A stretch of DNA of 64,000 nucleotides from Terriglobales bacterium (lineage in GTDB: Bacteria > Acidobacteriota > Terriglobia > Terriglobales > Acidobacteriaceae), in assembly GCA_049592035.1 (NCBI GenBank), contig JBAWFQ010000127.1, forward strand, positions 68 through 64,067, given 5' to 3'. Below the pieces are notes generated by a model that was given only the letters and a program-made list of their open reading frames with translations, searched no databases and had not been told where the DNA came from. How positions within the stretch are numbered: the stretch's first letter is position 1; every line of letters starts with the position of its first letter. Made by a program: the position numbers and the translations under genes. Shown in pieces: positions 370 to 21,948 of the stretch.

Positions 370-437
370 CGCTCTTTAATGTACCTCAGGCGGCGCACGG
401 GTAGCGCCCTTTGAGCTGGCTTGCGATGTCAGGCAAA

Positions 438-3506: not shown

Positions 3507-4607
3507 GATGCACTCGGCTTAAAGAATCAGAAGTTGATCCTGAACGGCGTTTTTCATACCTCTTTGAAGGAGGATTCGGTCGCGGTTGCTCTAGAGAAAA
3601 GAGGACGCGAGGTACTTGCAGACATGCCGAATGGTCTAGAGAAGCTTGCCAGAATTGAAGTGCCGTTGACCGCGCAGTCGCTTATCGGAGCCGCCTCGCT
3701 ACGCCAGTTTGCGAAAGGCCACTTTGATGCGGGAAATGCTGCGCGCCACCCGCAAGCTGAAGTGAATCTTCCGCCGCCGCTTGCCACCCTGGTGCCCGAT
3801 CTGATCGCACGGGGCCAAGGCGTCATCATGACGATGGGCAAGGGTGGCGTGGGAAAGACCACGGTCGCTGCTGCGTTGGCTGTGGAACTCGCAAGCTCCG
3901 GTTATAGCGTCCATCTGACCACCACTGATCCTGCTGCCCACGTGCATCTAGCTTTGAGAGCAGCCATACCGGGTCTTCGCGTTTCGCGTATTGACCCAGT
4001 TTCTGAAACACGCGCCTACACGGAAGAAGTGATGGCGGAATCCGGGCGAGATCTCGACGAAAAAGGTCGCGCATTACTCGAAGAGGATCTGCGCTCTCCT
4101 TGCACAGAGGAGATTGCGGTATTTCGCGCTTTCGCGCGTTGCGTGGACGAGGGGAATCATGGCTTCGTGGTGATAGATACTGCCCCGACAGGACATACCT
4201 TGCTGTTGCTCGACGCGGCTGAAGCATATCACCGGGACGTTGCCCGCAACCTCAGCTGCATTCCAGACAGCGTCCGCAGGCTGCTGCTCCAATTGCGGAA
4301 CCCGGACTTTACTCGGATTGTCATTGTGACCTTGCCTGAAGCCACACCTGTACATGAGGCAGCGCGGCTTCAAGACGATCTGAATCGGGCGGGCATCACG
4401 CCCTACGCGTGGGTGATAAACCAGAGTTTTTGTGCGACCGGAACGCATGACCCTGTTCTGGCTGAACGCGGTGCGTTGGAATTGCGCTACATTGCTGAAG
4501 TGCGGGACAAACTCGCGCAAAGGCTGGCCCTGATTCCGTGGCAGTCTGAGCCGCCAGTCGGAGCGCCGGGACTGCAGCAACTCTTCATGGAGACAGTAAC
4601 CAAATGA
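3507..4607 (+). pseudogene. arsA: 5'-truncated arsA (only the tail of the A1 half, the linker and the A2 ATPase half remain)
   Basis: P-loop GKGGVGKTTVAAALA lies ~100 aa into the ORF and DTAPTGHTLLLLD follows. The preceding residues (LGLKNQKLILNGVF...EKRGREVLADMP...) resemble the end of the ArsA A1 half plus linker. An in-frame TGA at 3504-3506 and no A1 P-loop upstream. Confidence 0.6.
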
Positions 4608-4623
4608 ATCAGAGGTTCAACGA

Positions 4624-5025
4624 ATGAAGGAACTCGAACAATACTTCAAGGCTCTAGCCGATGCGAACAGGTTGCGCATCCTGAACCTTCTGCTCCACGG
4701 CGAACTGTGCGTTTGTGATATCCAGTTTGTCCTAGAGGCTCCGCAGCCGACTGTGTCGCGACATCTCGCGTACTTGAAGAACTCAGGGCTCGTGCTCGAT
4801 CGGCGAGACGGTCTCCGGATTTTCTATCGGCTCGCTCAAACGAAACAGGGCGCGACGAAGAAGCTCTTCGAGTTTTTGCGGGATGCCTACAAGAGCGAAG
4901 AACAGCTACAGGACGACACGCGCCGGTTGAAAGATGCCATTCAAGAGGGTTCCTGCACGGTGAGCGAGTGGAAGCCGTACTCGGCAGTTGGGGCAGGCAA
5001 ACCGGCGCACAGTAATCGCACCTAG
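4624..5025 (+). CDS. arsR: ArsR/SmtB family metalloregulatory repressor
   Basis: LADANRLRILNLLLHGELCVCDIQFVLEAPQPTVSRHLAYLKNSGLVLDRRDG: winged HTH with the ELCVCD metal site. GAGG lies upstream of the ATG. Confidence 0.85.
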   Translation: MKELEQYFKALADANRLRILNLLLHGELCVCDIQFVLEAPQPTVSRHLAYLKNSGLVLDRRDGLRIFYRLAQTKQGATKKLFEFLRDAYKSEEQLQDDTRRLKDAIQEGSCTVSEWKPYSAVGAGKPAHSNRT

Positions 5026-5043
5026 AACGCAAGGAATCCACGG

Positions 5044-5721
5044 ATGGCAACGACGATCCAAACACTCCCCAAGAATACGGAACGCAAACGGCTGAATCTG
5101 TTTGAGCGTTACCTGACGCTATGGGTTGGTCTCTGCATGATCACTGGCCTCGCGCTCGGCAAGTCGGCCCCTTCCGCGGTGCAAGCACTCGGGAGTATGG
5201 AGTTCGGAAAGGGCAGCCAGGTCAACGTTCCTATCGCGATTTTGATTTGGCTGATGATCATCCCGATGATGATGAAAGTGGATTTCAGTTCCATCCTGAG
5301 CATTCACCAGCGACCACGCGGGTTGCTTGTCACGCTGTTCGTGAATTGGCTGGTCAAACCATTTTCAATGGCGCTAATCGGCTGGGTATTCTTCCGTTTC
5401 GAAGTGTTTAGCGCCGGGACGCATCCGGCCGGTCTCAATCCGAATGCTGTCACGGCAATGGCTGAAATCGGAATCAACATCGCAGGAAGCCGCTCGAAGT
5501 CAGTAGACGAGTTCGCCGAACAACGGTTCGATTATGTCTTCACTGTCTGTGACAACGCGAAAGAGTCCTGCCCGATATTTCCCGGGGGTGGGAAAAGAGT
5601 GCACGAGAGCTTTAGGGACCCGGCGACTGCCCCGGCTGATCAGCAACCCGAAGTCTTCCGTAAGATACGAGATCAAATTGCGGATCGGTTGCGTGCGTTT
5701 GTGCGCAGCGAAGCTTCGTAA
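5044..5721 (+). pseudogene. In-frame chimera: N-terminal ~118 aa of ACR3 arsenite efflux permease joined to the C-terminal ~105 aa of a LMW-PTP-type arsenate reductase (ArsC)
   Basis: aa 1-118 (RLNLFERYLTLWVGLCMITG...IPMMMKVDF...LFVNWLVKPFSMALIGWVFF) are ACR3-like TM1-3. From ~aa 121 VFSAGTHPAGLNPNAVTAMAEIGINI...YVFTVCDNAKESCP...ESFRDPA matches Trx-type ArsC from about residue 33. The N-terminal CX5R P-loop is absent. Junction at ~5395-5410. Confidence 0.65.
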
Positions 5722-6280: not shown

Positions 6281-8446
6281 TTACGGACAGCCGGTGCAGA
6301 GAGGAGTTCGCACGGCGTAATAGCCGAAGGACACCTGCGCCGATCCCGGACTCGGGTTCACCAAGTCGGTTTCGATGAAGAAGGCGTGACTTGGATCGAT
6401 GAAGTAGTAATCCACCGAGAATGCATAGGTGGTGGTGTTGACAACCGTGAATGCGCTGCTTTGGTTGACATTTCCGAGAGTGCCCGCGAAAGGAGCGTTG
6501 GCCGACGGGGAATTGAAGGAGCCGCCGAATTGCTGGTCTGGCAAGCTGGGAAGACCCGAGTTCGTACTACTATCGGCGAAGCCAGAAAGAGTTTGTCCGG
6601 TCGAGTCTGCATTCATCTGACCCGTGCCGTCGTTTTCGGTCCCGTTCTGCTGGGTGAAGTTTAATCCGTAGTCGCCGCTGAACGTGGGAGTCATGGTCGA
6701 TTGCGGGTAGGCGATTCCGGTTCCAATCGAGGGATAGTGGAGATTGGGCTGGGGTCCGATGTCTCCGATGCCAAGCACCAGCGCCTCACCCGCGCCGCTG
6801 GGAGTGGTGAGATAGATAAAGAGCTCGGGTTCATAGGAGGGATCAGGCGCGGGGGTGAAGCTGCTGGGAGTGATGCAGGCGCGGCCGGTCCCTGTTACTA
6901 CGGTTCCGCTCGTGGCCCCGCAGGAACTGGTTGAGGAATCGACCGCGTAGGTTGCAGTAAATTGCGCGCTGATCTGAGCCCCCGGAATTGCTCCCTTCTT
7001 GCAGGTGGATTGCACACAATTCTGCTGCAGGAAAGTGTCGGCGTAGCCGTTGCAAGAATCGTTCTGGCAACCGTTGCCATCGGCGGTGAAGAGATTTGCC
7101 GTGGTCCAGGTCGCGGGAAGGTAACTGCTGTTGACGGGAGAGAGGTCTACGCCCGTGACTCCGAAGACGTAGGGACCGTCGAAGGATGCGTTGCTAAAGT
7201 TGCCATAGCTGCCCGCGGTTTGGCCGATGGCGAGTCCGCCGGTTAGGCCTAATGAAGTAACGGTGCCGCCCGCGGCGGTGTCGGTTTCGATCATGTCTAT
7301 GTGGCTGGCGTCGACGATGTAACCGGCGAAGACGGCGGTTACAGGCTTGGGCTGGATTCCGTCGAGCAGGCCAACCAGATTGAATGTGACCTTTCCCAGG
7401 CTGTCAGGAGACGAGGATAGCTGCGAGCCGGTTAGAAACGTCGCATCGCTCAGTTTGAGATGCTCGCCAATGATTTCGTCGGTCACGCCCGAGATGGCGG
7501 TTTGGCCGGATGGGATATTAAGGACGCCGCCGAGCGCGAAGGGCGCGCTTTCGACTACGTTGGTGCCCTTCACCACGAAGGCGTAGCTTCCGGAGGGCGC
7601 GGCCACGCTAGTCCCCTGCAGATCCAAGGTTCCGACAGCGGAGGCTCCGGTCGCTGCACTGCCTAGATCCACTTGTGTGACCAGAGCCTGGGGATTCTGC
7701 GGACTACCTTGCGGATTAAGGAACACGAAAGCGAAGGTCTCGATGCCGTTGCTGCCAATGTTGGTGTCGTTGGTGTTGAGGGTTATCAGTCCCCGTCCAT
7801 CGTTGCCGAGGAAATAGGTGCCGGTGAGATTGGTGTCCGAGAGGGAACCTGAGGCGAGGTAATTCGCGGTTTGCTCGCCGTTCCTAATGTTTCCCTGTCC
7901 ATCGAGGACGAGGGCAGCCGCAATCTGGTATGGATTATTGCTGGAGTCAACTCCCTGCGCTTGGAGAACATAGGTGCCGGCTTGCAAGCTGCTGTCAAAG
8001 GTGGTGATGGTAATCGGAGCGACATAGTTGGACGACTGATATCCTTCCGCGTACGCGACAATTTCGGTGACCATGCTATTGGCGGACAGGGTTGGGGGCG
8101 CGGTAAAGGTGATAGATGCACCACTCTGGCTCGACGGACTACTAAGGGTGCCGCACGCGCTGCCTTTGGCGCTTTGACAGCTGAATTGCCAAACTACTCC
8201 GTCACTGACTATGTTCGCGGGACCCGTAATCGTGGCGGTGAGGGTTACTGTGCCGCTGACTGGGATCGAGGAGGTGCTGGTCTGAACGGTGACGGTGACG
8301 TCGGGCGGCGGTGGCGGTGGAGGATTCTGGACGTTTGCGGTGCTGCCTCCGCATCCGGCAAATAAGGAAAGCATTGCCGCCGCTAAAAGAAAGAGAATCC
8401 ATCTTTGGGTTGCCACAGCCGACCTCCTGGGATTGAGTTGCATCAT
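6281..8446 (-). CDS. Cys-rich all-beta lipoprotein C (unknown function; Ig-like domain then three repeated beta modules)
   Basis: Lipobox LSLFAGC|GG followed by a P7 tether. Ig-like segment VTVQTSTSSIPVSGTVTLTATITGP. Three modules share G(T/S)Y..., ...G.I.NG... and ...IETD (HIDMIETD, HAFFIETD). Last gene of the 17166->6281 operon. Confidence 0.75.
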   Translation of the reverse strand: MMQLNPRRSAVATQRWILFLLAAAMLSLFAGCGGSTANVQNPPPPPPPDVTVTVQTSTSSIPVSGTVTLTATITGPANIVSDGVVWQFSCQSAKGSACGTLSSPSSQSGASITFTAPPTLSANSMVTEIVAYAEGYQSSNYVAPITITTFDSSLQAGTYVLQAQGVDSSNNPYQIAAALVLDGQGNIRNGEQTANYLASGSLSDTNLTGTYFLGNDGRGLITLNTNDTNIGSNGIETFAFVFLNPQGSPQNPQALVTQVDLGSAATGASAVGTLDLQGTSVAAPSGSYAFVVKGTNVVESAPFALGGVLNIPSGQTAISGVTDEIIGEHLKLSDATFLTGSQLSSSPDSLGKVTFNLVGLLDGIQPKPVTAVFAGYIVDASHIDMIETDTAAGGTVTSLGLTGGLAIGQTAGSYGNFSNASFDGPYVFGVTGVDLSPVNSSYLPATWTTANLFTADGNGCQNDSCNGYADTFLQQNCVQSTCKKGAIPGAQISAQFTATYAVDSSTSSCGATSGTVVTGTGRACITPSSFTPAPDPSYEPELFIYLTTPSGAGEALVLGIGDIGPQPNLHYPSIGTGIAYPQSTMTPTFSGDYGLNFTQQNGTENDGTGQMNADSTGQTLSGFADSSTNSGLPSLPDQQFGGSFNSPSANAPFAGTLGNVNQSSAFTVVNTTTYAFSVDYYFIDPSHAFFIETDLVNPSPGSAQVSFGYYAVRTPLCTGCP

Positions 8447-8517
8447 CTTGCCTTCATCGCATCGAGTTCTGAAACTTCACTGCCATGCCACACAATCTTC
8501 GCCGCAGACGCGTGTGC

Positions 8518-10905
8518 TTAGTGTCCTGTGCCCCGCAGGTACACATATTGGGGATTGCCGTTGGTTACTACTCCCCCGCTTGTTTCCTGCGTGTAATCAA
8601 TGGTGAGCAGTCCGGACTCGAATCCCGTGCCGGTAGGCGTGAAGTTTACGCTGACGGTGCAACTGTCGCCCGGAGCCAGGGTTGCGGGGCAAGTGTCGCC
8701 GCCAGGCGGAATAGAGTAGTTGCCCGTCACCCCTATCGTGCCCACGAAAGTTACGGTCAGTGGGCTCGCCAGGTTAGGGTCGTTGAGAAGCGTAATGGTC
8801 GGGGAGCTGCTCGAGCCCAGAGTGCCAAAATCCAGGCCGGCGCTGGGAGACATTCGCAGCGGGCTGGGTTCATTCGCTTTCAACTCCACTGGAAAGCGTC
8901 CGCTATCGATTTCGCATGGATTGGAAGGAGACGGAGCAGTACCAACCGGCCAACACTCCAACGTGTTCAGCTCTAGGAAATAATCCAAGCCACTGTTTTG
9001 GTCGGTGTTGGGCTGCGGCACATAGGTCATCTGCAGGCTGCAACTTGCCTGAGGAGCGAGCAAGGCGCCGGTGCAGGTGTCAGACGAGATCTGAAAGTTG
9101 GGGAGTAAAGTGCCGGGATCGCTGTCGCAGCTGTACTCGATGGTATTACCGTCAGCACTGATGGAAAATGGAACGCCCGGTGAGCTGCCCAGTACCTGCA
9201 GTCCGGCAACCGGGCTGCTTTCCGTCAGCGGGCGTGGGAGCTTGAGCGGAGCCGGCTTGCCGTTTATATAGGGGTTCATGCAAGGCGCTGCGCTCAGGAT
9301 CTGCACCGGATTCGCACTGTAGTTGGTGAAGGAGAGGGACTGAGGCTGACTGGCTTCCGCGGGATTCGACTGGTTTTCGGCGCCGAAATCGAGTTCGGGA
9401 GTGGAGGGTTGGATGGCGCTCAGGCCGACGCCAGAAATGGGCGCCGCGAACGTCGTGACATGGTCCGGGTTGGTGTCGCCGGGAACGGCCACTTGCACCA
9501 AAAAGTTCCGAAGAGTTAACGGGCAAAACTCCGGCGCAGCTCCCGTGGAGGACGGCGGACTTTGGTTGGGCAGCCAAGGGCAGCTTTCTTGCGGGGAAAA
9601 GGTCACGGTGATGGCGCAAGACTGGCCAGAAGCGAGATCGAAAGGTTGTCCATTCGAAGAAGCGCCTCCTGGGCCACAGGCGTCGGTCTCGGTGAAACTG
9701 GGCAAACCGGTGAAATCGCTGGAGCCGACGAAGGAATATGAGTTGTCATCAGCAAACGTCGAGGTCAGACTGCTCAGAGTAGAGCTGGAATTGTTTGTGA
9801 GGGTGACTGTCTGCGCCGTCGAGGGCGATACCAACAGCTGAGCAGGAAAGGTGACAGTGGCCGGGGACAGCGTGATCGGTTGCTGGCAAGTGGTGGTGCT
9901 GTTCAACGCCAGACAGATGGCGCCAGCGTCTCCTGCGCCACTGGCACTACTGAGATTGCCGGGGCAGGAACTGCTGGCCACGATGTAGGAAGGCTTGGTC
10001 CCCTGCAGAATGTAACCGCCCGTTGCGGAGATGAAGGTCACGGGATTAATGCCAGTCGGCGAACCGGCCGGTTCGCCACTTTGACCGATCACTGCCCCGT
10101 TCGTCCCGATGACTTGCAGAATGACGGAGTCGCCGCTGATTTGGCCGTTCACGGACGCAGCCGAGAAACAAGGGTAATTTGAAAAGCGCAAAATGCCGGC
10201 GATGGTCGCGTTGCTGGCTCCGATGTTCTCGCCCTGTGTGAATGTGCCCGACACCAGAAAATCTTGATTGGCCAGGCCGGAGGCTCCGCCGGTGCTATGA
10301 AAGCTCCCTGTAATGGCTCCTGTTAGCGGAGGCACCAGGTTGGCCTGCCATTGCTGCGGCCCCGATTCGCTGGTTCCAATTCCGCAAACCGTACCATCGG
10401 GCGCGGTACCCTGGGTTGCCGTATAGGTGCCCGACATCGTCGAGCCATCCGAACTCACGGAACCGTTGGTAAAGGTAAAGGTCTGTGTACCGGCTACCGC
10501 AGTGAAGCTAACGGTCGAGCCGGTCATGGTTCCCGTGATCGCAGCCGACCCAGCGTTGCACACTTGTGCGACGTTTTGGCTGTTTAAGTTGGAGACAGAG
10601 TAAACGGCTTGTCCCGCGACCGAGCCGTTGGTTTGCAGCAGGAACCCGCCCTGCAGGCCGTAGAGCTGATTGGCAGGATACTTGGGATCGGGGTTTTGGA
10701 AGACCGTGAACTGCCAGTTGCCGGAAAGTGTTCCGCTCGGCTGCGAGCCGCCCGATGCGCCGCTGCCACCGCACGCGGAAAGCATCATCGCTATCGCTAT
10801 TACTGTGGCAGCGACGAGCAAAAGTCGCGGATACTTTGCGTGCTGCAGCCGAGGCACGGCGCGATGTGCGCGGCACGACATTCGATGTTTAGTTAGTCTC
10901 TGCAT
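8518..10905 (-). CDS. Lipoprotein B (paralog of lipoprotein A at its N-terminus, plus at least three choice-of-anchor-D/ASH-like beta-sandwich modules)
   Basis: Lipobox AMMLSAC|GG. SGNWQFTVFQN...GLQGGFLLQTNGS aligns with 10889-12388. C-terminal modules such as LDFGTLGSSSSPTITLLNDPN...CPATLAPGDSCTVSVNFTPTGTGFESGLLTIDY. The start overlaps the upstream stop by 17 nt (alternative start at 10881). Confidence 0.75.
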   Translation of the reverse strand: MQRLTKHRMSCRAHRAVPRLQHAKYPRLLLVAATVIAIAMMLSACGGSGASGGSQPSGTLSGNWQFTVFQNPDPKYPANQLYGLQGGFLLQTNGSVAGQAVYSVSNLNSQNVAQVCNAGSAAITGTMTGSTVSFTAVAGTQTFTFTNGSVSSDGSTMSGTYTATQGTAPDGTVCGIGTSESGPQQWQANLVPPLTGAITGSFHSTGGASGLANQDFLVSGTFTQGENIGASNATIAGILRFSNYPCFSAASVNGQISGDSVILQVIGTNGAVIGQSGEPAGSPTGINPVTFISATGGYILQGTKPSYIVASSSCPGNLSSASGAGDAGAICLALNSTTTCQQPITLSPATVTFPAQLLVSPSTAQTVTLTNNSSSTLSSLTSTFADDNSYSFVGSSDFTGLPSFTETDACGPGGASSNGQPFDLASGQSCAITVTFSPQESCPWLPNQSPPSSTGAAPEFCPLTLRNFLVQVAVPGDTNPDHVTTFAAPISGVGLSAIQPSTPELDFGAENQSNPAEASQPQSLSFTNYSANPVQILSAAPCMNPYINGKPAPLKLPRPLTESSPVAGLQVLGSSPGVPFSISADGNTIEYSCDSDPGTLLPNFQISSDTCTGALLAPQASCSLQMTYVPQPNTDQNSGLDYFLELNTLECWPVGTAPSPSNPCEIDSGRFPVELKANEPSPLRMSPSAGLDFGTLGSSSSPTITLLNDPNLASPLTVTFVGTIGVTGNYSIPPGGDTCPATLAPGDSCTVSVNFTPTGTGFESGLLTIDYTQETSGGVVTNGNPQYVYLRGTGH

Positions 10906-12388
10906 GGTGATTCGCGTCCTGAAAAATGCGATTGATGGAACTCCGCGATGCGCCCTCGCCGGTCACTGTGCCGGTGATGGGCACGGTAAAGACGTTATCG
11001 TTGTCCGCGGTCACGGGGCTGGTAACGGTCAGGGTTGCGGTCAGCGGGGATGAGCACTGCGCTCCGCATTGCGGAGCGAAGGTGATAGTGATGACGCACG
11101 AACCGCCTGATGCGAGTGAGAACGGCTCTCCCTGCGCGGGAAGTCCGCCGGAGCCACAATTATCTGTCTCGGTAAAATTGTTTGCGGTTGCGGGGATGTT
11201 GGCAAACGTGAACGTCAAACCGCTCAGCGAGCCGCCGGAGGAGTTTGCCAGGGTGACCGCCTGCGTCGAAGTGGCGGCTGGGGGCGGCGGGGGATAGGTT
11301 AAGGTTACGGCTGCCGGAACCAGAGTGATTGGTTCCTGGCACGCGTTCGCGCTTCCCAATGGAATTCCCACTGAAAGACAGATATCTCCGTAATCTCCGG
11401 CAGTAGTTATGCTGTTAGTGTTACCGGGACAGGAGTTAGTTGCAACTAAGTAAGATGGCCCGACGGAATGCAGGATGTAGCCGCCCAGCGCAGACTCATA
11501 GGTCACGGGATTCAGTCCTGTAACTCCGTAGGAACTGGCGGGTTCGCCGATCTCGCCTATGGTGGATTGGTCAGGTCCCAGCATTTCGAGCGTAACGGAG
11601 TTGCCGCTGATTTGGCCGTAGACGGACGCGGTGGCGAAACACGGGTAGTCGCTGGCGTTCGTCCCCGGCTCGGTAAAACTCAAAGTGCCGGAGACGGTGG
11701 CGTTGCTGGCTCCGGTGTTCTGCGCTTGAGTGAGAGAACCGGAGACCAGAAAATCCCGATTGGTAAGGCCCGCAGCGCCGCCCGTGCTGTGGAAACTCCC
11801 CTGAATGTTTCCGGTGATCGGCGGCACTAGAACTGCGCTCCATTGCAAGCCGGTTTGGGCGGTTCCGCACGGTGCACCGTCGCCTGACGTGCCGGCGGTC
11901 GAAGTGTAGGTACCAGCGATCGTCGAATCATCAAAACTTTCGATCCCTGTAAGAGTAAAAGTTTGCGTGCCCGCTACTGCAGTGATGGCCCACTGGCTCT
12001 GGTTGCCGTTGATTGTCGTGCTCGATCCGGTGATGACAGCGTTTCCGATGTTGCACGGGATGAGGAGCCCGGGCAAGAAAACAGCGTAGGTTGCGCCTCC
12101 CGTCAGCGAGGTGCCGTTCTGAAGTAGAAAGCCTCCTTGCAGGCCGCCGTTGAACGAACCGTCGCCGGGGGGCGCCATCGTAAACTGCCAGTTGCCCGAG
12201 AGCGAAAGCTGGATTTGGCCGCCGCCGGAAGACGAGCCTCCGCAACCGGCAAGTATCAGCGTGGCGGCCAGCAGCACCAGCACAAGACTTGTCGCGCACG
12301 GTCCGCAAAGCCCAGGCGGATTACATTGTGCTCGATCTTTGGTCAATGTCTCCATACATGCCATTTCCTGGAAGCTCGCTGGGAACAT
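10889..12388 (-). CDS. Lipoprotein A (paralog of the N-terminal ~390 aa of lipoprotein B, plus one ASH-like module)
   Basis: Lipobox TLILAGC|GG. LSGNWQFTMAPPG...GLQGGFLLQNGTS, TGNIQGSFHSTGGAAGLTNRDFLVSG and YPCFATASVYGQISGNSVTL are collinear with lipoprotein B. P5 linker. The start may be ATG 12355. Confidence 0.75.
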   Translation of the reverse strand: MFPASFQEMACMETLTKDRAQCNPPGLCGPCATSLVLVLLAATLILAGCGGSSSGGGQIQLSLSGNWQFTMAPPGDGSFNGGLQGGFLLQNGTSLTGGATYAVFLPGLLIPCNIGNAVITGSSTTINGNQSQWAITAVAGTQTFTLTGIESFDDSTIAGTYTSTAGTSGDGAPCGTAQTGLQWSAVLVPPITGNIQGSFHSTGGAAGLTNRDFLVSGSLTQAQNTGASNATVSGTLSFTEPGTNASDYPCFATASVYGQISGNSVTLEMLGPDQSTIGEIGEPASSYGVTGLNPVTYESALGGYILHSVGPSYLVATNSCPGNTNSITTAGDYGDICLSVGIPLGSANACQEPITLVPAAVTLTYPPPPPAATSTQAVTLANSSGGSLSGLTFTFANIPATANNFTETDNCGSGGLPAQGEPFSLASGGSCVITITFAPQCGAQCSSPLTATLTVTSPVTADNDNVFTVPITGTVTGEGASRSSINRIFQDANHHAETN

Positions 12389-12452
12389 TTGTTTCTCAGC
12401 GAGCCACGCAAAAGCACGTTAGCAAAACGCGATTACTAATAATCAAGCCATG

Positions 12453-12518
12453 CAAAATCAGGTTACTCAACGTCGAGTTATCTAAGATCGAGTTACCAAA
12501 ATCAAACCTCACAAAATC
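12453..12518. repeat. Cluster of short direct/inverted repeats between the barrel gene and lipoprotein A
   Basis: caaaatc three times (12453, 12497, 12512). tcgagtta twice, 15 nt apart (12474-12496), with an inverted variant ggttactc at 12461. Confidence 0.4.
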
Positions 12519-12546
12519 GATTGCAAGGGGCGCTTTCTGCAGTGCA

Positions 12547-15500
12547 CTAGAAACCTAGTTTTAGACCAAACTGTATTGTCCTGGGCCGATGGGCATCAAG
12601 CGGGTGCAAGAAAGACGCACCGGTGACGCAATCGGCTCCGCTGCCTTTGAACCCGGCGGAATATACGGGACCGGCGTAGCAACTGATAGCGTTATTTCCA
12701 GTGCTGCCTGGGTTGTCGAAATCGTAGACGCGAAACTGAGTGTGATTAAAAATGTTGAAAGCCTCAGCACGAAACTCAAGTTGGCCGGACTCGCGAATCT
12801 GGAAATGCTTGAGCAGCGCCATGTCGAAGTTGGTGCGCCGTGGATTATTGAGGAAGTTGCGTCCGGCGTCGCCGAAAGTGAGCCCGCGCGGAGCCACAAA
12901 CTCGGAAGGATTGCCGATGAGCGGGCCAAAGCTTCGGGAGTTATTGCCCGGCGAGGGCAGTATCTTCATCACGTCGGGATAGGATGCAGCTACGCCGAGG
13001 CCGCTGGAAACTCCTGCATTGTCGGTGAGGGAGATGCCGGTGTTTCCGGTGCTGTTGATCACCGTGAAGGGGATACCCGACTGAAACAGAGTTACCCCCG
13101 AAAGCTCCCAGCCGTCGAGGATCTCGTTGGATAACTTGGAGCAACAGTTTTGTTTGGGCGCGGCAGCGGGATCTTGCGGGCCGCGCTCCTCGATCACGTC
13201 GATGAAGTTGCGCGGAAAATTCTTGAGCGGCAGCTTATAGACGTAATTGATGTTGGCAAGATGACGTACGTCGAAACTGGAGCTGGCTTTGTTCTCGCGC
13301 AGATCGTACGAATCGACCAGGATGGGCTCGCTGCGGTCGGAAGCGTCGTCCAAGGAATGGCTGTAGGAGTAGGAGGCGCCGAGAGTGAGCGGCCCGCTGG
13401 TGTGCCGAACCGTGGTCTGCATGGCGTGGTAGGTGGAATCGGCCACGTTCTGCAACGAGAGAACTCTTCCCAAGCCTGGATAGGGATGCATCGGCACCCT
13501 GGAACCGTTGGGTAATAGTTGAGTCAGAGAATTGACGTTCGGAATGTTTGGATTCGTGCACGCCGCCTGCAAATATACGTATGCGGGGTCCGTAGGCGTC
13601 ACTTGCGTTCCATTCGCGAGTTGGAACGGATGAGTGCCGTCCCCGGGAGCGTCTCCGGGGGACCCTGCGATCCCGCTCGGAAGAATGGTGCAGTCGGTGA
13701 TGGTCAGCGGCTCGTTCGGTCCGAAGGGATTTTCGCTGGCTGGCAACGGATGCAACTGGTTGAGCTGACGCTCGACCGTCAAATGAGTACCTTTGCTGCC
13801 GACATAAGCGATGTTGACCACAAAGGAGTGGGACAATTCCCGCTGCACGCCGAAACTCCACTGCTGGGCGTAGGGCCAAGTCGCTTTGGTGGGGATGGAA
13901 GTTACATCGAGCGGGAAGACAGACCCTGCCGGGGGCGGGGTTCCACCCACAGAGCTCGCACACGCGGCGTTGGTCGGATCAAACGCTGACCCGTAGCCGA
14001 CGTTACCAATGCAGGGGTAACTGACGGGAAGTTGCTGGGTCATGCTGAGCACCACCGGAGCGCTCGCTTCCAGCGATCCCGTGTTGGCTTCGTTGCCGGT
14101 GCCATGCTCGAAAAAGATGCCATAGCCGCCGCGGATGGAGGTCTTGCCATCGCCCCATGGATCCCAGGCAAAACCAATTCGCGGCGCGGGATTGAAGAGA
14201 TGACCTTTCATGCAACTGGCGGGCGTGCCGTTGAAACCGCACTGCACCAGGCCCAGGGCGCTGATTACGTCAGAGGGTATCTGGAATGTGACAGGATTGA
14301 ACGCTACTGGAGCCGAGCCGGCACTTTTATCGAGGAGCTCGCCATAAATTGGGTCGACCGCAAATCGCGTGGCGTTGAATCGGGATGCTTCCCAGTTCCA
14401 CGCGTTGCGGTTCTTCTCGCTGTAAGTGCCAAACAGACTCATTCGCAAACCTAGGTTCAGAGTAAGCCGGTGAGTTATCTTCCAGTCATCCTGGAAATAG
14501 GGCTCGGCGATCTGGAAACGCTGATAGTAGCGATGGTTGGCGGAATCCTGAGTGAAGCTTTGGATGAATCCCTGGGGATTGCCTTGGGGATTGGCGTCGG
14601 ATTCAAGCAGGAAATCGGCAAAGGCGTTTCCCGTGCTGTGCGTGAGATTGCTGAAGGTCAGCAGGCCCTGCGTATCGCCCGAAGCGGCGCCGATGGCGTT
14701 GTTGTTTTGATTGCGCTGGTAGTACACGTATTGCGCGCCGAATTGCAGCGTGTGCCTGCCGAAGGCCTTCCCGATGTCGTCGCGCACGGAGTAGGTTGGA
14801 TCGCTGTGGCCCCAGGGCATGTAGGAGGGATCGGCGGCAAAGCCGCGGCCGCCGTAGGCGGCATTGGTTCCGAGGAAAGCGACTCCAGGCATCTTGCCGC
14901 CGAAACCATTGTTGAAAATGTATCCGATGGCGCATTCCGGAAAACCGGTAACCGGGCTCACGCTGATCGCGGGGTTACATTGATTTTGCTCGTTAGCGGG
15001 GAGCGACTTGTCAATGACGAGCGGCTGATCGAGAGTGGGATTGCGCTGGAACTGTGCGCCACCCGGTCCGTTTTGGTCGGTCAAAGTAATGCTGGAGTTG
15101 ACGTAGCTGATGACCACATCGTTCAACAGCGTTGACGATATGGTGTTTGTGAAGCGCGCCACCAGGCTGATGCCCGGCCCAGTGAACTGGTTCTGTATGG
15201 TGGGAAACGTCGCCGCCGAGGGTTCGTTGGTGCTCAGGTAGCTCCATTGTGGGTTCAGCACCGTCGTATTCCAGGCGTCGTGGATGTAGCGAAACGAAAG
15301 CTTGAGTTTGTCGGTTAACTGATGGTCGATGTGAAATAATTCCTCGCGCCAGTAAGTGGAGGGAGAAACGGAGGCGTTATAACAGCGGTAAGGGTCGCTC
15401 GGGTCGGGACTGGCGGGATTGTAATTAGCCAGGCTGACGTTGCAGCCAGAAGGGGCGTTCGGCAGGGGGATCAAGTTTGCGTTCAAGATTGCCTGCGCGT

Positions 15501-17166
15501 TCTTGTCGACGCTGACCGATCCCAAGGTGAAGGGGCCTTGCAAATGTATTAGCGGAGCTAGACCGCCGGTTCCCGAGGGCGACACGGACGGGCAGTCGGG
15601 GTACTGCGAACGAAGAAAAGATCCCGTGTTCAAGGGGCACACGTCGCTAAAATCGAAGTCCTGGTAAACCTGACCGTTCGGGCCGGTTTGCAGGTTCTCC
15701 TCAAGCGTTCCAGAAGGCGACAACCTGAGACCGCGCTCTTTCAAGCCGGGCACGGCCTGGTTGTACGGGGTGGGCGTTTTCTCGAGGCGAAATTCTTCGG
15801 AATAGAAAAAATAGGTTTTGTTCTTCTTGGTGTAAATGTGCGGAATGATGAGTGGGCCACCGATCGTACCGCCGAAATCCTGACGGCGATAGAGTGGAGC
15901 TTTCGTCCCAAATGTCTGGCCGGTTGTTTCGCCGGGAGCCGGCGGAATGGTGTAGACGATGTCGAAGTAGTTGCGCGAATTGAACGCTTCGTTGCGAATA
16001 AAGTCGTAGAGGTTTCCGTGCCAGTCGGGAGTTCCAGACTTGGTGGTCACCTGGACCGTACCGGATGCGGTGCGGCCGTACTGAGCGCCGTAGTTGGAAG
16101 TTAGTACCTTCACTTCCTGAATGGCATCGATGCTGGGATAGACGATAAGCGTGGTGGAGGCACCGTTCAGACCGGTATTGAGAACGTCGCTGCCATCGAC
16201 CTCGTAGGAGTTGTACTCGACGCGGCCTCCATTCACGCTGTATTTCACACTGCCCGTCACTCCCACTTTGGCTTCGTCCTGGCCGGTCTGGTTGCTGACG
16301 CCCGGAGTGAGCGCGATGAGTTGCGAGAAATTGCGGCCGTTGAGTCCGATCGACGTTACTTCTTTTTCCGTAATCGTGCCGGAAACGGTGGCGCTTTCTG
16401 TCTCTACCGTTCCCACGCCGCTCGATTCCACGTTGACTTCTTCCGCTTTGGCCTTGGCGGGGACGAGGGGGGCGTCGAGCGTCAGTTCGAGACCGGCAGA
16501 CAGCGTGATGTTGTCAAACGGGAGATCGGCGAAGTTGGGAGCGGTTACGACCAGATTGTAGGTTCCGGGGCCGAGGTTGGTGAACCTGTAGACTCCCTTG
16601 TCATTGACCGAGGTTTCAAGTTTTGCTCCGGCAGCGCTGCTGAGGACGGCTTTGGCATTGGCTACTACGGCCCCGGTCGGGTCAGTCACCGTGCCGTTGA
16701 TGGCGCCCGTGCCGCCGGCAATTTTCTGAACGAGAGGAGCGGCACCTTGTTGCGAGGGTTCGGCGGCAGCCTCCTCGACTGCGGGCTTGGCGCTTGCTGG
16801 CTCTAGAGTGGCGTCAAGCTTCAACTTCTTACCCGGCGTGAGCGTGAAGTCTTCGAAGACGACATCGGCAAAGCCGGGCGCCGAAACGGTTAACGTGTAA
16901 GTCCCCGGGTGAAGCCCGGTGATGGAATATGCGCCCTTATCATCGACGGGAATGGCAAGTCTGGCGCCCAATCTCGCAAGGACGGCTTTCGCCTCGTGCA
17001 CGACGGCGCCAGACTTATCGGTGACCGTGCCGGTAACGCTAGCCTTGGCAGGCGCGGTCTTCGGCTGCTCCTGGCCGACGGCAAGCGACAGCCCGAGAAC
17101 GACGAGCGTCAAGACGCTGAGGACGCGGCAAAAAAACCAAGGCGCAGAGGATGACACACTGATCAC
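12547..17166 (-). CDS. Giant Oar-like TonB-dependent-receptor-type outer-membrane beta-barrel with two tandem N-terminal carboxypeptidase-regulatory-like domains
   Basis: 1539 aa with a signal peptide. Two CarboxypepD_reg-like units (VTGTVTDKSGAVV...YSITGLHPGTYTLTVSAPGF and INGTVTDPTGAVV...YRFTNLGPGTYNLVVTAPNF). Plug-like GTITEKEVTSIGLNGRNFSQLIALTPGV. Long Gly/Asn/Tyr-rich barrel ending ...RPRTIQFGLKLGF. Confidence 0.85.
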   Translation of the reverse strand: MISVSSSAPWFFCRVLSVLTLVVLGLSLAVGQEQPKTAPAKASVTGTVTDKSGAVVHEAKAVLARLGARLAIPVDDKGAYSITGLHPGTYTLTVSAPGFADVVFEDFTLTPGKKLKLDATLEPASAKPAVEEAAAEPSQQGAAPLVQKIAGGTGAINGTVTDPTGAVVANAKAVLSSAAGAKLETSVNDKGVYRFTNLGPGTYNLVVTAPNFADLPFDNITLSAGLELTLDAPLVPAKAKAEEVNVESSGVGTVETESATVSGTITEKEVTSIGLNGRNFSQLIALTPGVSNQTGQDEAKVGVTGSVKYSVNGGRVEYNSYEVDGSDVLNTGLNGASTTLIVYPSIDAIQEVKVLTSNYGAQYGRTASGTVQVTTKSGTPDWHGNLYDFIRNEAFNSRNYFDIVYTIPPAPGETTGQTFGTKAPLYRRQDFGGTIGGPLIIPHIYTKKNKTYFFYSEEFRLEKTPTPYNQAVPGLKERGLRLSPSGTLEENLQTGPNGQVYQDFDFSDVCPLNTGSFLRSQYPDCPSVSPSGTGGLAPLIHLQGPFTLGSVSVDKNAQAILNANLIPLPNAPSGCNVSLANYNPASPDPSDPYRCYNASVSPSTYWREELFHIDHQLTDKLKLSFRYIHDAWNTTVLNPQWSYLSTNEPSAATFPTIQNQFTGPGISLVARFTNTISSTLLNDVVISYVNSSITLTDQNGPGGAQFQRNPTLDQPLVIDKSLPANEQNQCNPAISVSPVTGFPECAIGYIFNNGFGGKMPGVAFLGTNAAYGGRGFAADPSYMPWGHSDPTYSVRDDIGKAFGRHTLQFGAQYVYYQRNQNNNAIGAASGDTQGLLTFSNLTHSTGNAFADFLLESDANPQGNPQGFIQSFTQDSANHRYYQRFQIAEPYFQDDWKITHRLTLNLGLRMSLFGTYSEKNRNAWNWEASRFNATRFAVDPIYGELLDKSAGSAPVAFNPVTFQIPSDVISALGLVQCGFNGTPASCMKGHLFNPAPRIGFAWDPWGDGKTSIRGGYGIFFEHGTGNEANTGSLEASAPVVLSMTQQLPVSYPCIGNVGYGSAFDPTNAACASSVGGTPPPAGSVFPLDVTSIPTKATWPYAQQWSFGVQRELSHSFVVNIAYVGSKGTHLTVERQLNQLHPLPASENPFGPNEPLTITDCTILPSGIAGSPGDAPGDGTHPFQLANGTQVTPTDPAYVYLQAACTNPNIPNVNSLTQLLPNGSRVPMHPYPGLGRVLSLQNVADSTYHAMQTTVRHTSGPLTLGASYSYSHSLDDASDRSEPILVDSYDLRENKASSSFDVRHLANINYVYKLPLKNFPRNFIDVIEERGPQDPAAAPKQNCCSKLSNEILDGWELSGVTLFQSGIPFTVINSTGNTGISLTDNAGVSSGLGVAASYPDVMKILPSPGNNSRSFGPLIGNPSEFVAPRGLTFGDAGRNFLNNPRRTNFDMALLKHFQIRESGQLEFRAEAFNIFNHTQFRVYDFDNPGSTGNNAISCYAGPVYSAGFKGSGADCVTGASFLHPLDAHRPRTIQFGLKLGF

Positions 17167-17508
17167 TCCGAAGCTAAGAAGGTCTTAAGGGTGCAATGGC
17201 AAAGGGGGATTGTATATGGGGGGTCGCGGCTTAACGTTAATAGAATGTTAAATTCTGCCGGGTGTTTCTAACCCGATTTAAGCGACATCGGCATTCGTTG
17301 TTCGAGCCAAGGGCACGCTTCCAATAATGTCAAGTAACAGAATCGACTTACTACATTATTTCCCGAACTCCGCGACCGCCATCGTTTTCAGCGCGTGAGA
17401 CCCGCGACGGGGCAGACGTGGCCGACGGAAAAGTATTGCACTCCTTACGGCCGGACTCCAGCGAAACTGCTGAATTTAGGCAATTTCTTGCACTTGGCAT
17501 TCAAGGAA

Positions 17509-17526
17509 TTTTCATCAACTTGTCAC
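17509..17526 (+). promoter_or_regulatory. Pho-box-like 7+4+7 direct repeat
   Basis: ttttcatcaacttgtcac matches the E. coli Pho-box consensus CTGTCATAAATCTGTCAC at 13 of 18 positions by hand, with 11-bp half-site spacing. It lies in the divergent intergenic region. Confidence 0.3.
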
Positions 17527-17614
17527 ACAGCCTTAACATCGCCCGGCGAGCGAGCAGATAGACTTCGTGCTGCAACTCGAGTTTTGCTGTGACGGGGTGG
17601 TGTGCGCGATCGAT

Positions 17615-17634
17615 ATGTCACGCAATGTCACGCA
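17615..17634 (+). promoter_or_regulatory. Perfect tandem 10-bp direct repeat (ATGTCACGCA x2) containing TGTCAC half-sites
   Basis: atgtcacgcaatgtcacgca lies 119-138 nt upstream of the ATG at 17753. TGTCAC equals the Pho-box core, and direct repeats at about one helical turn are the binding mode of OmpR/PhoB-type regulators. A tagaaa -10-like hexamer lies 14 nt downstream. Confidence 0.4.
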
Positions 17635-17752
17635 CCTGATCCACAGCATAGAAAATGTCGCGGGCTCGGTAGGAGTTTTCTCCCTGCGTGTGGCACTACA
17701 CCACACGTGCAACAGATAGCTTCCAAAAACCATTCAGAGAGGGATCAATACT

Positions 17753-19600
17753 ATGTCGCGTATAAAATCGATTTTCCTGGTTCTGTTGTTGACAGCGGTC
17801 GTGGGCATTGTGCCTCTGGCACAGGCTCAGACGGTTGAATTAACTCTTGCAGGCTCTTCCGGCGCGTGGCAGACACTGGGCGTCGGGGCCTATTTCTATT
17901 GTGAAACTGGCGGTGTTACGTGCTATCACTGGACGAGCGCTTCCAACGCTGTAAACCTTACTGATAACCGCGTGACACCGGCGAACAATGACGGTGGCAC
18001 TCTCTGGGTGGTTTGGAGCGTCGTCAACGGAAACGTCTCCAAGGTGTGGTCTGACAATAAGGTTGACACCATCGTGGGCGACCGCTGCTTCTTCGCCCAA
18101 CCCCAGTGTAGTGTAAATGCCCCGTTGGCTACTCTCCAAGCTAGCGGTGCGCAACAAATCGCTACTACCATCTGGGGCGCGGACACAAATCTGCCCTCAT
18201 CTGTCATTTCCCTCTTCACAACCGGGACCTCAGTCACTGCCGCTGCCTCGGACGTGCGTCCCGAAGATGCAGCCTTCGAGGGCTGCCGCGTGAATTCCGC
18301 GCTCGGCGCCGGATCCTACGGCGGGTCGGGCAGCGACGGTTATGACGGTCTCGGATACAACTCAAACAACCTGCCTGGCGTTTGTCCGGGTCCGGGCCTG
18401 ACAACGGCGAACTACGTGGGAACTCCCATCCTGAGCGCCTACCCCGGGAGCACGGCTAAGGCGAACGTTCTGGCCTTCAACATCGCGGGTAATGACCCCA
18501 TCAGCGGCACGAAGATTCCCTCCTACACGGTAACGCCTTTGGGGGCTGATCCGCTCGTTGCTATCTTCGAGCGCAACGGGGGACAGCTCGCTGGTCTCCA
18601 AAATGTATCCGTAGAACAACTGCAACAGGCGTTCTCGGGAAATAACTGCGATGCCAGTGAGTTCGACGGCGCAAATGGCTATCCTCTGCCTCCCGCCAGC
18701 ATTGGCATCTTCCTGCGTGAACCCCTCTCGGGGACGATGACCGCCACGGAACTCAGTCTGCTCCGTAAGCCCGTCGTCTATCCCGCCGCTGCTGGCTTCA
18801 GCGGAGTCCTGGGCATCAGCCAGGAAGCCAACGTGAACGCTCCGGTCAATAACCCGCTCAACGGGCAACCTGGAACTTGTTTGAATGGTCTGGGTGCGCG
18901 GTATCGCGGGGTCGGCGCCGGTGAAATCATCAGCTGGGTTCAGAACTCCGACAAAAACCTGGGCACCGATGGCATCGGCTACACGTTCTATAGCTATGGC
19001 AACGTCAGTAAACTAGCCAACAGCTCGAACTACGGTTACGTCACGTTGGACAATGTCGACCCCATCTGGACGAGCTACGGGCCGCAGAATTCAACCGGAG
19101 CCGGATACGATCCCGGTCAGCCTGCCGGGGCCGGTGTGTTGCCGGCTGCGGCGAACCTGCCGGCGTCTTGCGGCTCGGCATTCCCCTGCCCGGAGAAAGA
19201 CATTTGGGCTGGCGGCTTGTCTTTCCCGCACATCCGCGACGGCAGCTACAACTGGTGGTCAATCATCCGTGTGATCAGCTACGCAGCGGGGACGAAAGAT
19301 GCCCAGGCCCTAGTCAAGGGCGCGCAGATTGCCGTTGTTGACGATGTTCCGGACTACGTGCCGGCGGTGAAAACGGTCGGCAAGACACAGACCGATCCTG
19401 GTCTGCTGGTCTGGCGTTCGCACTACCAGGAGTTCGACGGATCGGGCACCAATCTAGGCGGAGCTCCTGTTAACTGCGGCAAAACCGAGGCGGGCGGCGA
19501 CGGGGGCGGCACGATCCTTCCGTTTATCAGCGCCAAGACTTGCCCGAAGACTCCCACACAGGAAGTTCAGGGCAATCAGGGTCCGCAGGTTAGACCGTAA
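17753..19600 (+). CDS. Large secreted PstS-family (PBP_like_2, type-2 periplasmic-binding fold) protein with insertions
   Basis: Signal peptide ...VPLAQAQ. Collinear PstS-like landmarks: LAGSSGAWQT, AASDVRPEDA, VAIFERNG, VSVEQLQQAFSG, IGIFLREPLSGTMTATE, GIGYTFYSYGN, YVTLDNVDP. 615 aa is about twice a normal PstS. No pstCAB nearby. Confidence 0.5.
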   Translation: MSRIKSIFLVLLLTAVVGIVPLAQAQTVELTLAGSSGAWQTLGVGAYFYCETGGVTCYHWTSASNAVNLTDNRVTPANNDGGTLWVVWSVVNGNVSKVWSDNKVDTIVGDRCFFAQPQCSVNAPLATLQASGAQQIATTIWGADTNLPSSVISLFTTGTSVTAAASDVRPEDAAFEGCRVNSALGAGSYGGSGSDGYDGLGYNSNNLPGVCPGPGLTTANYVGTPILSAYPGSTAKANVLAFNIAGNDPISGTKIPSYTVTPLGADPLVAIFERNGGQLAGLQNVSVEQLQQAFSGNNCDASEFDGANGYPLPPASIGIFLREPLSGTMTATELSLLRKPVVYPAAAGFSGVLGISQEANVNAPVNNPLNGQPGTCLNGLGARYRGVGAGEIISWVQNSDKNLGTDGIGYTFYSYGNVSKLANSSNYGYVTLDNVDPIWTSYGPQNSTGAGYDPGQPAGAGVLPAAANLPASCGSAFPCPEKDIWAGGLSFPHIRDGSYNWWSIIRVISYAAGTKDAQALVKGAQIAVVDDVPDYVPAVKTVGKTQTDPGLLVWRSHYQEFDGSGTNLGGAPVNCGKTEAGGDGGGTILPFISAKTCPKTPTQEVQGNQGPQVRP

Positions 19601-19666: not shown

Positions 19667-19846
19667 AATTATTGCGCTGCGCTCGGATGCGGACTTCCAA
19701 ACTTATTGCGGCGCTGTTCTACTGGCGTGGGCTCCCGTTAAACTCACAGAATATTAATGTTGAGGCGGTATTATTTTTAGGCGGCGTTGCTTTCATCTTC
19801 GTCGTTGCCTTCGCGTGACGAACAATCCAAATCTGGGAAGGTTGCG

Positions 19847-21091: not shown

Positions 21092-21748
21092 ATGCGGCAA
21101 GTGGCAGCTTTGGCGTTACTGGCACTGGTGTTACCGATTGCGGCTTGGGCGGACGGAATTAACGTCACAAACCAAGGTGGCACAGTTGCGTTTTCGGATA
21201 TGGCGGGAACCGGAGGGCTGGGGACGATCGGCTCAACCACCATTTCTTCGAAGGGATCGCAACTGACTAGCTGGAACAATAATTCAGGGCACCTCGGCCT
21301 TGTCAATTACTCGACCGGCGCTCTGATGAGCGGCTCGGTCTCGGGTGGCGGAACGTTCGCGGCAGGCGGAATGTTTGACATCATCGGCGTCGGCAAATGG
21401 GCAAGCAGTTTAACCGGTTTGAAATGCGGCAAAGGCTGCGATCTCTTCACCGGCAGTTTCAACAAGCCCGCTATCTGGACTTTGGTTAGTTCGTCTAAGC
21501 AATCAGAATCCTTTACCCTAACCGGGTCAATCGAAGGCACGCTGTATACCGGTCGTACGGTGTATGGAACAACGACGCAGGACATCACCATCGACAATAA
21601 GGGACAGCTCGACAAGGGTATCGGCCACATCGGAACCGGCGGCACGCACCTCAACACTGCGGAGCCTGGAACTCTCGGTCTTCTGGGAACGGGGCTTGTG
21701 GCTGTCGGGGGGATGTTCTATCGCAAGATTTATAGAAAGATCGACTAG
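21092..21748 (+). CDS. PEP-CTERM-anchored secreted protein
   Basis: Signal peptide MRQVAALALLALVLPIAAWA. C-terminal sorting signal AEPGTLGLLGTGLVAVGGMFYRKIYRK (EP + TM + basic tail). GGAGG lies 8 nt upstream of the ATG. Confidence 0.75.
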   Translation: MRQVAALALLALVLPIAAWADGINVTNQGGTVAFSDMAGTGGLGTIGSTTISSKGSQLTSWNNNSGHLGLVNYSTGALMSGSVSGGGTFAAGGMFDIIGVGKWASSLTGLKCGKGCDLFTGSFNKPAIWTLVSSSKQSESFTLTGSIEGTLYTGRTVYGTTTQDITIDNKGQLDKGIGHIGTGGTHLNTAEPGTLGLLGTGLVAVGGMFYRKIYRKID

Positions 21749-21808: not shown

Positions 21809-21948
21809 TTGGCTGTTTCTCTTCATAGCGCCAAAGAAATCTCGTTTGTTAAGGGCTTGTTAATCGATGACCTGTCCCGTTTCCACACGGCAGAAGTCGG
21901 CTAAAATCAGCGTTTATCCAACTTCGAAGCTGGAAACTCCAATTCAAG

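Follow-up and report, generated by a model that had tools for sequence, protein, structure and literature searches.

We analysed a window of 64,000 nucleotides (nt) from a Terriglobales bacterium (GenBank assembly GCA_049592035.1, contig JBAWFQ010000127.1) and identified a locus in which an operon for a large TonB-dependent barrel and three lipoproteins, lipoA, lipoB and lipoC, is divergent from genes for a PstS-like and an alpha/beta-hydrolase-like protein. The locus is real, strongly conserved and previously undescribed. With moderate confidence, we read it as a Terriglobales-specific outer-membrane acquisition system that is controlled by phosphate starvation. The gene architecture, its conservation, the fold classes, the relationship of one partner to the PstS family and the association of a promoter box with particular genes were established directly. 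An earlier inspection of the DNA letters (the sequence-only reading) had not recognised the gene combination as a described system, and we likewise found no description of it; literature on Acidobacteria combined with TonB and lipoprotein or with CarboxypepD_reg yielded nothing relevant.

Gene order is conserved across Terriglobales genomes

The barrel gene (12547-17166, minus strand; 1539 amino acids (aa), GTG start) was assigned from its open reading frame (ORF) and by Pfam, and is followed on the same strand by the ORFs of lipoA (10889-12388; 499 aa), lipoB (8518-10905; 795 aa) and lipoC (6281-8446; 721 aa). We confirmed the coordinates and the spacing given in the sequence-only reading, with 158 nt between the barrel gene and lipoA, a 17-nt overlap between lipoA and lipoB, and 71 nt between lipoB and lipoC. 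Across genomes, the median gaps were 15, -17 and 57 nt and the 17-nt overlap recurred in most loci, which makes the 158-nt gap atypical.

A lipoC-profile scan of species-representative genomes returned 73 loci, of which 72 were labelled Acidobacteriota, mostly Terriglobales or Acidobacteriaceae. Conservation of the neighbourhood, a check that the sequence-only reading had proposed, was clear. Of the genome loci, 51 had a complete lipoC and 8.5 kb or more of upstream sequence; in 49 of these, the barrel gene and lipoB lay upstream of lipoC, and in 47 the 615-aa PstS-like gene was divergent from the barrel gene. lipoA was absent in about a quarter of the loci. Among 50 species-level genomes, identities of the barrel ranged from 70 to 89% with a median of 75%, compared to medians of 56% for lipoB and 51% for lipoC. 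A metagenome scan centred on the 377-aa hydrolase-like gene added 80 further loci, where the 615-aa gene adjoined the 377-aa gene in 46 of the 48 loci with room and the barrel was present in all 31 loci whose upstream flank reached 7 kb or more. When ORFs were clustered over all loci, the only conserved families were those of this module and the outer flanks varied. The module had previously been taken to end at position 17166, a boundary that had to be given up because the divergent PstS-like and hydrolase-like genes are co-conserved with the operon and a regulator gene is often next to them.

A distant, rearranged variant (L075, 487-19447) keeps the barrel, two lipoC-like lipoproteins and the PstS-like, hydrolase-like and regulator genes. 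The L075 barrel has a single CarboxypepD_reg domain, the lipoC-like proteins carry extra immunoglobulin (Ig) repeats, and the region additionally contains a flippase-like gene, a 458-aa secreted protein, a 444-aa lipoprotein and a gene resembling extracytoplasmic function (ECF) sigma factors. The one remaining locus of the genome scan (L020; CAVOSJ010000004.1) is labelled Nitrospirota; its genes and promoter region are close to those of L019, an Acidobacteriaceae metagenome-assembled genome (MAG), and the label probably stems from an error in binning or labelling.

The barrel is of the Oar type

By domain content, the barrel is assigned to the Oar subclass of TonB-dependent transporters (TBDTs), which is defined by an N-terminal CarboxypepD_reg extension (PMC6434023). 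Pfam matched OMP_b-brl_4 (PF25183; 6e-140) and two stretches of CarboxypepD_reg (PF13620; 2.7e-33), in line with the duplicated N-terminus of a 1539-aa barrel described in the sequence-only reading, while the Plug match was just under the cut-off (22.3 vs 23.9 bits). The protein comprises a signal peptide, CarboxypepD_reg domains at aa 43-122 and approximately 157-235, a putative plug at aa 264-370 and a barrel of very large size whose loops carry paired cysteines. Directly before the plug is a TonB-box-like strand, E-E-V-N-V-E-S (aa 240-246; 16429-16449, minus strand), which is conserved in six homologous barrels including the one of the distant variant, and the EVNVE strand and the plug were both strongly conserved in the barrel alignment. 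No match to the barrel was found among PDB sequences, and its NCBIfam matches comprised weak generic TonB-receptor models and no SusC/RagA signature. As stated in the sequence-only reading, the window appeared to lack the corresponding accessory genes: TonB, ExbB/D, ECF sigma and anti-sigma domains were not detected by Pfam among 43 window ORFs, with some small ORFs left out of the scan.

The lipoproteins belong to two families

lipoA and lipoB are paralogs (49% identity over approximately 440 aa, E = 1e-96), and neither showed a relation to lipoC by BLASTP or profile-profile comparison. The operon therefore encodes two lipoprotein families and not three, while the count of three lipoprotein genes given earlier stands. 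The lipoboxes (LAGC, LSAC and FAGC) and the Gly/Ser or poly-Pro linkers behind them were found on all three proteins as described.

Based on the alignment with lipoB, the true start of lipoA is probably Met12 (12355). Behind the lipobox LAGC and its Gly/Ser tether, lipoA consists of an N-terminal head of twin-beta type and a single Ig-like domain, and Pfam gave only a sub-threshold match. In lipoB (lipobox LSAC), the N-terminal head (aa approximately 60-340) is built as in lipoA from two antiparallel beta units and is followed by a stalk of ASH/HYDIN-type (choice-of-anchor D) Ig-like domains identified by Pfam and NCBIfam (NF012200, 2.3e-14). Choice-of-anchor D domains are typically found in surface-anchored proteins. 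The AlphaFold model of lipoB was all-beta (predicted local distance difference test (pLDDT) 75.8), with Foldseek matches to HYDIN, CEP192 SPD-2 and FimC down to E = 1e-12. The lipoB family has 919 homolog matches, all from Terriglobales wherever the source organism was named and most annotated as hypothetical.

lipoC has a different layout. Behind the lipobox FAGC, which is continued by GGSTANVQNPPPPPPP, come a poly-Pro tether, then one Ig-like domain and finally a pair of duplicated beta-rich lobes (D1-D2 and D3-D4). The internal duplication was detected by hhalign, which aligned D1 (152-282) with D3 (417-566; E = 1.4e-5) and D2 (283-416) with D4 (567-721; E = 2.3e-5), giving a two-lobe layout that resembles the plan of TbpB. 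The AlphaFold model was again all-beta (pLDDT 84.5, predicted template modelling score 0.79), and its best Foldseek matches included TbpB (E = 3.7e-4, probability 0.82), LbpB (5e-3) and also hemophilins, AttH and Phm7. For lipoC, there were 333 homolog matches; where a source organism was named, all were from MAGs or metagenomes of Terriglobales, and most were annotated as hypothetical. The fold and family searches suggested earlier for the lipoproteins gave known domains in lipoB, a sub-threshold match in lipoA and, at the thresholds used, no Pfam family in lipoC.

The all-beta ectodomains of the sequence-only reading agree with the models of lipoB and lipoC, and the absence of a helical SusD among the partners is consistent with these models and with the lack of a SusD match in Pfam. 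Its description as Cys-rich corresponds to 15, 20 and 11 cysteines in lipoA, lipoB and lipoC; conserved cysteines are abundant in lipoA and lipoB, and 18 non-lipobox cysteines are invariant in the lipoB family. Lys and Arg together make up merely 1.0-2.4% of the lipoproteins compared to 10.4% of the hydrolase-like protein, while Gly, Ser and Thr are abundant, a composition that would be compatible with exposure to an acidic exterior. Judged by lipobox and tether, anchor D domains, low Lys and Arg content and invariant cysteines, the lipoproteins look extracellular. The regions annotated as signal peptide and tether of lipoB (8518-8700) and lipoC (6281-6490) gave sub-threshold matches to NCBIfam NF058595 (‘lipo-invert putative C-terminal anchoring domain’; approximately 26 bits vs a cut-off of 37), which are probably a compositional effect.

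The divergent genes encode a PstS-like and a hydrolase-like protein

The first divergent gene (17753-19600, plus strand) encodes a secreted 615-aa protein with large Cys-containing insertions, which profile matches place with PstS-like (PBP_like_2) proteins. This assignment was made by hmmsearch against PDB and by Pfam. A profile of 50 family members (30-55% identity) retrieved seven PDB matches (1twy, 9l8j, 4ecf, 4exl, 4q8r, 4gd5 and 4n13), all of them phosphate-binding PstS proteins (E = 3e-5 to 3e-3), and ten of the 50 members matched PBP_like_2 (PF12849; best 3.3e-8). At the thresholds used, neither the 615-aa nor the 377-aa window protein matched a Pfam family itself. Within the PstS-like motif R322-E-P-L-S-G-T, the invariant positions are R322, S326 and G327, and at least 90% of these members have T328; this R-x3-S-G-T anion-binding motif aligns to the RExxSGT of 1twy, 9l8j and 4ecf. 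The AGSS and TDIRPED motifs are nearly invariant as well. Profile and motif evidence together relate the 615-aa partner to the PstS family. The family of the 615-aa protein is itself broad, with 715 representative clusters. Only in L030 does the PstS-like gene have a canonical pstS as its immediate upstream neighbour; a phosphoesterase gene is on its downstream side there.

The leader of the PstS-like gene contains a conserved hairpin approximately 45 nt before the start codon (17683-17712, plus strand; RNAalifold). Its fold was predicted on the sense strand only and it carries GC/GU/AU and UA/CG substitutions, which suggests an RNA element. An Rfam scan of the window returned two tRNAs only.

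The second divergent gene (19787-20920, plus strand; probable start 19847) encodes a secreted alpha/beta-hydrolase-like protein of 377 aa, recognised by weak PDB matches to a lipase and an acetyl-xylan esterase.

A shared promoter box points to a probable phosphate regulon

The divergent intergenic region between the barrel and PstS-like genes (586 nt) contains two blocks that were conserved in 56 species. The barrel-side block has the consensus TTTCAC-N5-TTTAAC, followed approximately 20 nt later by a TACAAT -10 element; in the window, these are represented by TTTAAC-ATTCT-ATTAAC with two half-sites at an 11-bp period (17236-17252, minus strand) and by a -10-like TACAAT (17209-17214, minus strand). 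The PstS-side block (consensus TTTTCAC-N4-TTGTCAC-N5-CTTAACA) is found as TTTTCAT-CAAC-TTGTCAC-ACAGC-CTTAACAT with three half-sites (17509-17539, plus strand), and a -10-like TAGACT is located at 17559-17564 (plus strand). In 1.45 Mb of loci, this block was confined to the promoter of the PstS-like gene, and it travels with the gene where the latter is relocated (L008). By pattern match, a box of the same type was found 126 nt before the regulator gene (23895-23911, plus strand).

A relaxed box pattern matched 184 sites in 2.27 Mb, compared to approximately 17 expected from base composition, and four sites in the window compared to 0.22 in shuffled sequence. The box was present upstream of 82 of 90 barrel genes, 16 of 25 OmpR/PhoB-type regulator genes and all seven neighbouring PF04185 phosphoesterase genes, and upstream of none of 347 lipoA, lipoB and lipoC genes. 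It was also found directly before genes for a PHO4/PiT phosphate transporter, a PhoU-domain protein, a phosphoesterase with a twin-arginine translocation (TAT) signal, OlsF-like acyltransferase/GNAT proteins and another CarboxypepD_reg transporter. Phosphoesterase genes abut the cluster in three different arrangements. Ornithine lipids are free of phosphorus and induced by low phosphate (PMC12186959, PMC12971839).

The regulator gene of the window (24021-24746, plus strand) encodes an orphan response regulator of the OmpR/PhoB family with Pfam Response_reg and Trans_reg_C domains. Orthologs with 84-95% identity directly follow the hydrolase-like gene in 14 loci, and the protein is a candidate controller of the boxes. 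Given the shared box, the PhoB-like regulator and the pstS and phosphoesterase neighbours, a Pho-type regulon is the simplest reading.

Several further sites and regions with the box were recorded. A box with its -10 region, ATTCACATTACGGTAACACTCTTGTAATATCTCGCGCC, at 23563-23610 (plus strand) is near-identical to a phosphoesterase promoter in L007; no ORF of at least 90 aa starts within 350 nt downstream in the window, and the site may be left over from a phosphoesterase gene that was lost. Two pattern matches (364-380, plus strand; 21848-21864, minus strand) have no obvious downstream gene. A GTGACAT direct repeat (GCGTGACAT-T-GCGTGACAT, approximately 17623-17643) was considered as a regulator site and rejected, as it is confined to this window and not conserved. 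By gene content, another genome region (L074, 1-10362) looks like a compact phosphate island. Besides a regulator homolog (69% identity), it encodes two transporters, one of the major facilitator superfamily and one of the PHO4/PiT type, together with a TAT phosphoesterase and a 329-aa protein that is secreted, and the box is found upstream of several members of this set. Box-preceded genes for OlsF-like proteins of approximately 610 aa (acyltransferase plus Acetyltransf_5) are located in L047 (12304-14169), L058 (13132-14937), L069 (682-2544) and L070 (603-2432), directly downstream of lipoC in L047, L069 and L070, and their products may make phosphorus-free lipids.

Other features of the window

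The long gap between the barrel gene and lipoA contains a weak terminator-like hairpin (12507-12528, minus strand; promoter/terminator scan), possibly, with low confidence, an attenuator; the promoter and terminator scan performed at chance level, and terminator-like sites in this region were no commoner than in shuffled sequence. Between the hydrolase-like and regulator genes, the plus strand encodes a Gly-rich 218-aa protein with a PEP-CTERM-like tail (21092-21748) and a Kelch-repeat protein with a lipobox-like FSAC (21949-23379), neither of which recurs beside the locus elsewhere. An arsenic-resistance cluster (3534-5721, plus strand; ArsA-like ATPase, ArsR) is convergent on lipoC. It includes a 225-aa ORF composed of an Acr3/SBF fragment and a low-molecular-weight phosphatase (ArsC-type) domain, which may be a fusion or a frameshift.

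Discussion

The function that we propose rests on computation, from which we infer phosphate regulation, surface exposure, the direction of transport and the kind of substrate. Under phosphate limitation, the OmpR/PhoB-type regulator would activate both divergent promoters through the direct-repeat boxes. The Oar-subclass barrel would then import a phosphorus-containing substrate, powered by TonB, and the lipoproteins, held on flexible tethers at the surface, would capture this substrate or hold it over the barrel. lipoC would act as a bilobed, TbpB-like binder, and lipoA and lipoB, each a twin-beta head on a stalk of Ig-like domains, would share the capture role. The PstS-like protein would bind phosphate or a phosphoryl group, either in the periplasm or outside the cell, and the substrate would be processed by the alpha/beta-hydrolase-like protein and, in some genomes, by a PF04185 phosphoesterase as well. 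Organophosphates and metal-bound or humic-bound phosphate are among the candidate substrates.

A number of observations weigh against this proposal. On the side of regulation, the best NCBIfam match of the regulator was PhoB at 225 bits, under the equivalog cut-off of 296; no PhoR was found near it, its ortholog was adjacent in only 11 of 58 metagenome loci, and we take the box consensus to be only loosely like the Pho boxes of E. coli or Bacillus. Concerning the PstS-like protein, pstCAB was in no locus examined, and hhalign of the 615-aa family against an E. coli PstS sequence gave no alignment. The 377-aa family keeps an invariant QGSGAS, and its alignment shows no conserved catalytic His downstream of this motif, for which reason the hydrolase-like protein may not be catalytic. 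For lipoC, the Foldseek TM-scores were low (0.13-0.19), as expected for a multi-domain chain, and no sequence relation to TbpB was found in Pfam or PDB, even with the family profile. TonB/ExbBD genes are not linked to the locus, we know of no Acidobacteria in which placement of lipoproteins on the cell surface has been established, and the 73 loci all come from uncultured MAGs, with no cultured strain among them.

A more specific version of the proposal is that the secreted 615-aa protein acts as a ‘phosphophore’, which would bind phosphate or organophosphate outside the cell, dock on the bilobed TbpB-like lipoprotein and pass its ligand to the barrel. This would be a hemophore-style shuttle for phosphorus; in a related variant, the barrel would also deliver the lipoproteins of its own operon to the cell surface. 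We regard this reading as improbable.

An alternative explanation, which we consider rather unlikely, is that the same architecture imports a substrate without phosphorus, such as a glycan, a peptide, a metal complex or a humic compound, and that the box marks a broader stress or envelope regulon. To our knowledge, Oar-like barrels are very numerous in Acidobacteria and no substrates are known for them; lipocalin-like and Ig-like folds are uninformative on the ligand, the regulator scored under the PhoB cut-off, and some copies of the locus have a melibiase (L077) or a glycoside-hydrolase-like lipoprotein and a flippase (L075) nearby. However, these sugar-related neighbours are not conserved, whereas the neighbours that carry the box are phosphate-specific (PiT, PhoU, PF04185 phosphoesterases and OlsF-like synthases), and the co-conserved partner is, by its profile matches, a member of the PstS family in which the anion-binding motif is retained. 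That the genes are only neighbours and have no joint function is highly improbable. The weak terminator-like hairpin after the barrel gene of this window would fit such a view, but order, strand and spacing are kept in approximately 50 species while the flanking genes differ, and no box-type promoter was present before any of the 347 lipoprotein genes.

The sequence-only reading had also raised export in the manner of the Myxococcus Oar, with the lipoproteins as possible cargo. This idea found no support in our analysis and is retained as a doubtful alternative, in which the barrel would move proteins outward, as Oar reportedly does with PopC: the cargo would be the lipoproteins of the operon, taken to the cell surface, or else a phosphoesterase or the PstS-like protein, released to the medium. 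The barrel is indeed of the same subclass as Oar, no other factor for surface export of lipoproteins is present in the locus, and the composition of the lipoproteins and of the PstS-like protein suggests an extracellular location; in Caulobacter, an extracellular lipoprotein induced by phosphate starvation is reported (PMC2996285). On the other hand, export by such a barrel has a single precedent, in which PopC is not encoded beside oar, while the characterised operons of a barrel followed by lipoproteins (SusCD, PusCD, BtuBG and TbpAB) all encode importers. The barrel is also far more conserved than the lipoproteins (median identity of 75% compared to 51-56%), as expected of a transporter with diversifying surface binders.

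The locus resembles known systems of a TBDT and a surface lipoprotein, including SusCD/PusCD, BtuBG and TbpAB, but is a member of none. Similar to Oar of Myxococcus xanthus, the barrel has an N-terminal CarboxypepD_reg, a large barrel domain of the PF25183 type and, probably, a plug preceded by a TonB-box-like strand; unlike Oar, it has two CarboxypepD_reg domains, is in an operon with lipoproteins and lacks linked Ton genes, an export role is not indicated, and it is presumably approximately 480 aa longer. BtuG folds as a beta-propeller and binds vitamin B12. In the BtuB-BtuG system of Bacteroides (PMC10404256), a beta-rich surface lipoprotein other than SusD caps a TonB-dependent barrel, which our locus may parallel; fold, family and context are different. 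With SusCD and with PusCD, a phosphate-regulated SusCD-type complex of Bacteroidota (bioRxiv 10.64898/2026.09.03.749221; PMC8115612), the locus shares a barrel gene followed by lipoprotein genes and, probably, nutrient capture at the cell surface under phosphate-starvation control for organophosphorus scavenging. It differs from both in having no SusD-like helical lid and no SusC/RagA signature, in its all-beta lipoproteins of unrelated families and in its phylum.

In TbpA/TbpB, LbpA/LbpB and the hemophilin binders of Neisseria, Pasteurellaceae and Acinetobacter, a TonB-dependent barrel is paired with an all-beta lipoprotein on a tether, whose two lobes go back to an internal duplication. lipoC appears to have a similar layout, and its Foldseek matches fall on TbpB, LbpB and HphA. 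In contrast to TbpB and LbpB, lipoC has no sequence homology to them, low TM-scores and an extra Ig domain, and no Slam-type translocon was found in the conserved locus (whole genomes were not searched); the lipoA/lipoB family has no counterpart in TbpAB or LbpAB, and a host iron protein is an unlikely ligand here. Regarding PstS and the Pho-box regulon, the 615-aa protein matches only PstS in PDB and keeps R-x3-S-G-T, the promoters carry direct repeats with an 11-bp period, and the best match of the regulator is PhoB. The 615-aa protein differs from PstS by its Cys-containing insertions, the lack of an adjacent pstCAB and a size that we take to be approximately twice that of PstS; the half-site TTTCAC/TTTAAC differs from CTGTCAT, which we assume to be the usual Pho-box half-site, and the regulator differs from PhoB in being an orphan below the PhoB cut-off.

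Systems of a TBDT and a surface lipoprotein are understood mainly in Bacteroidota and a few proteobacterial pathogens. If the proposed function is true, the principle would extend to Acidobacteria, with an Oar-type barrel and lipoprotein families without described relatives, and it would provide a concrete, testable hypothesis for one Oar-like barrel. With the candidate Pho box and the orphan PhoB-like regulator, the genes of uncultured Acidobacteria that respond to phosphate starvation could be charted directly from MAGs. The finding points to a way in which the Terriglobales that dominate peat and bogs may acquire phosphorus in acidic, phosphorus-poor soils.

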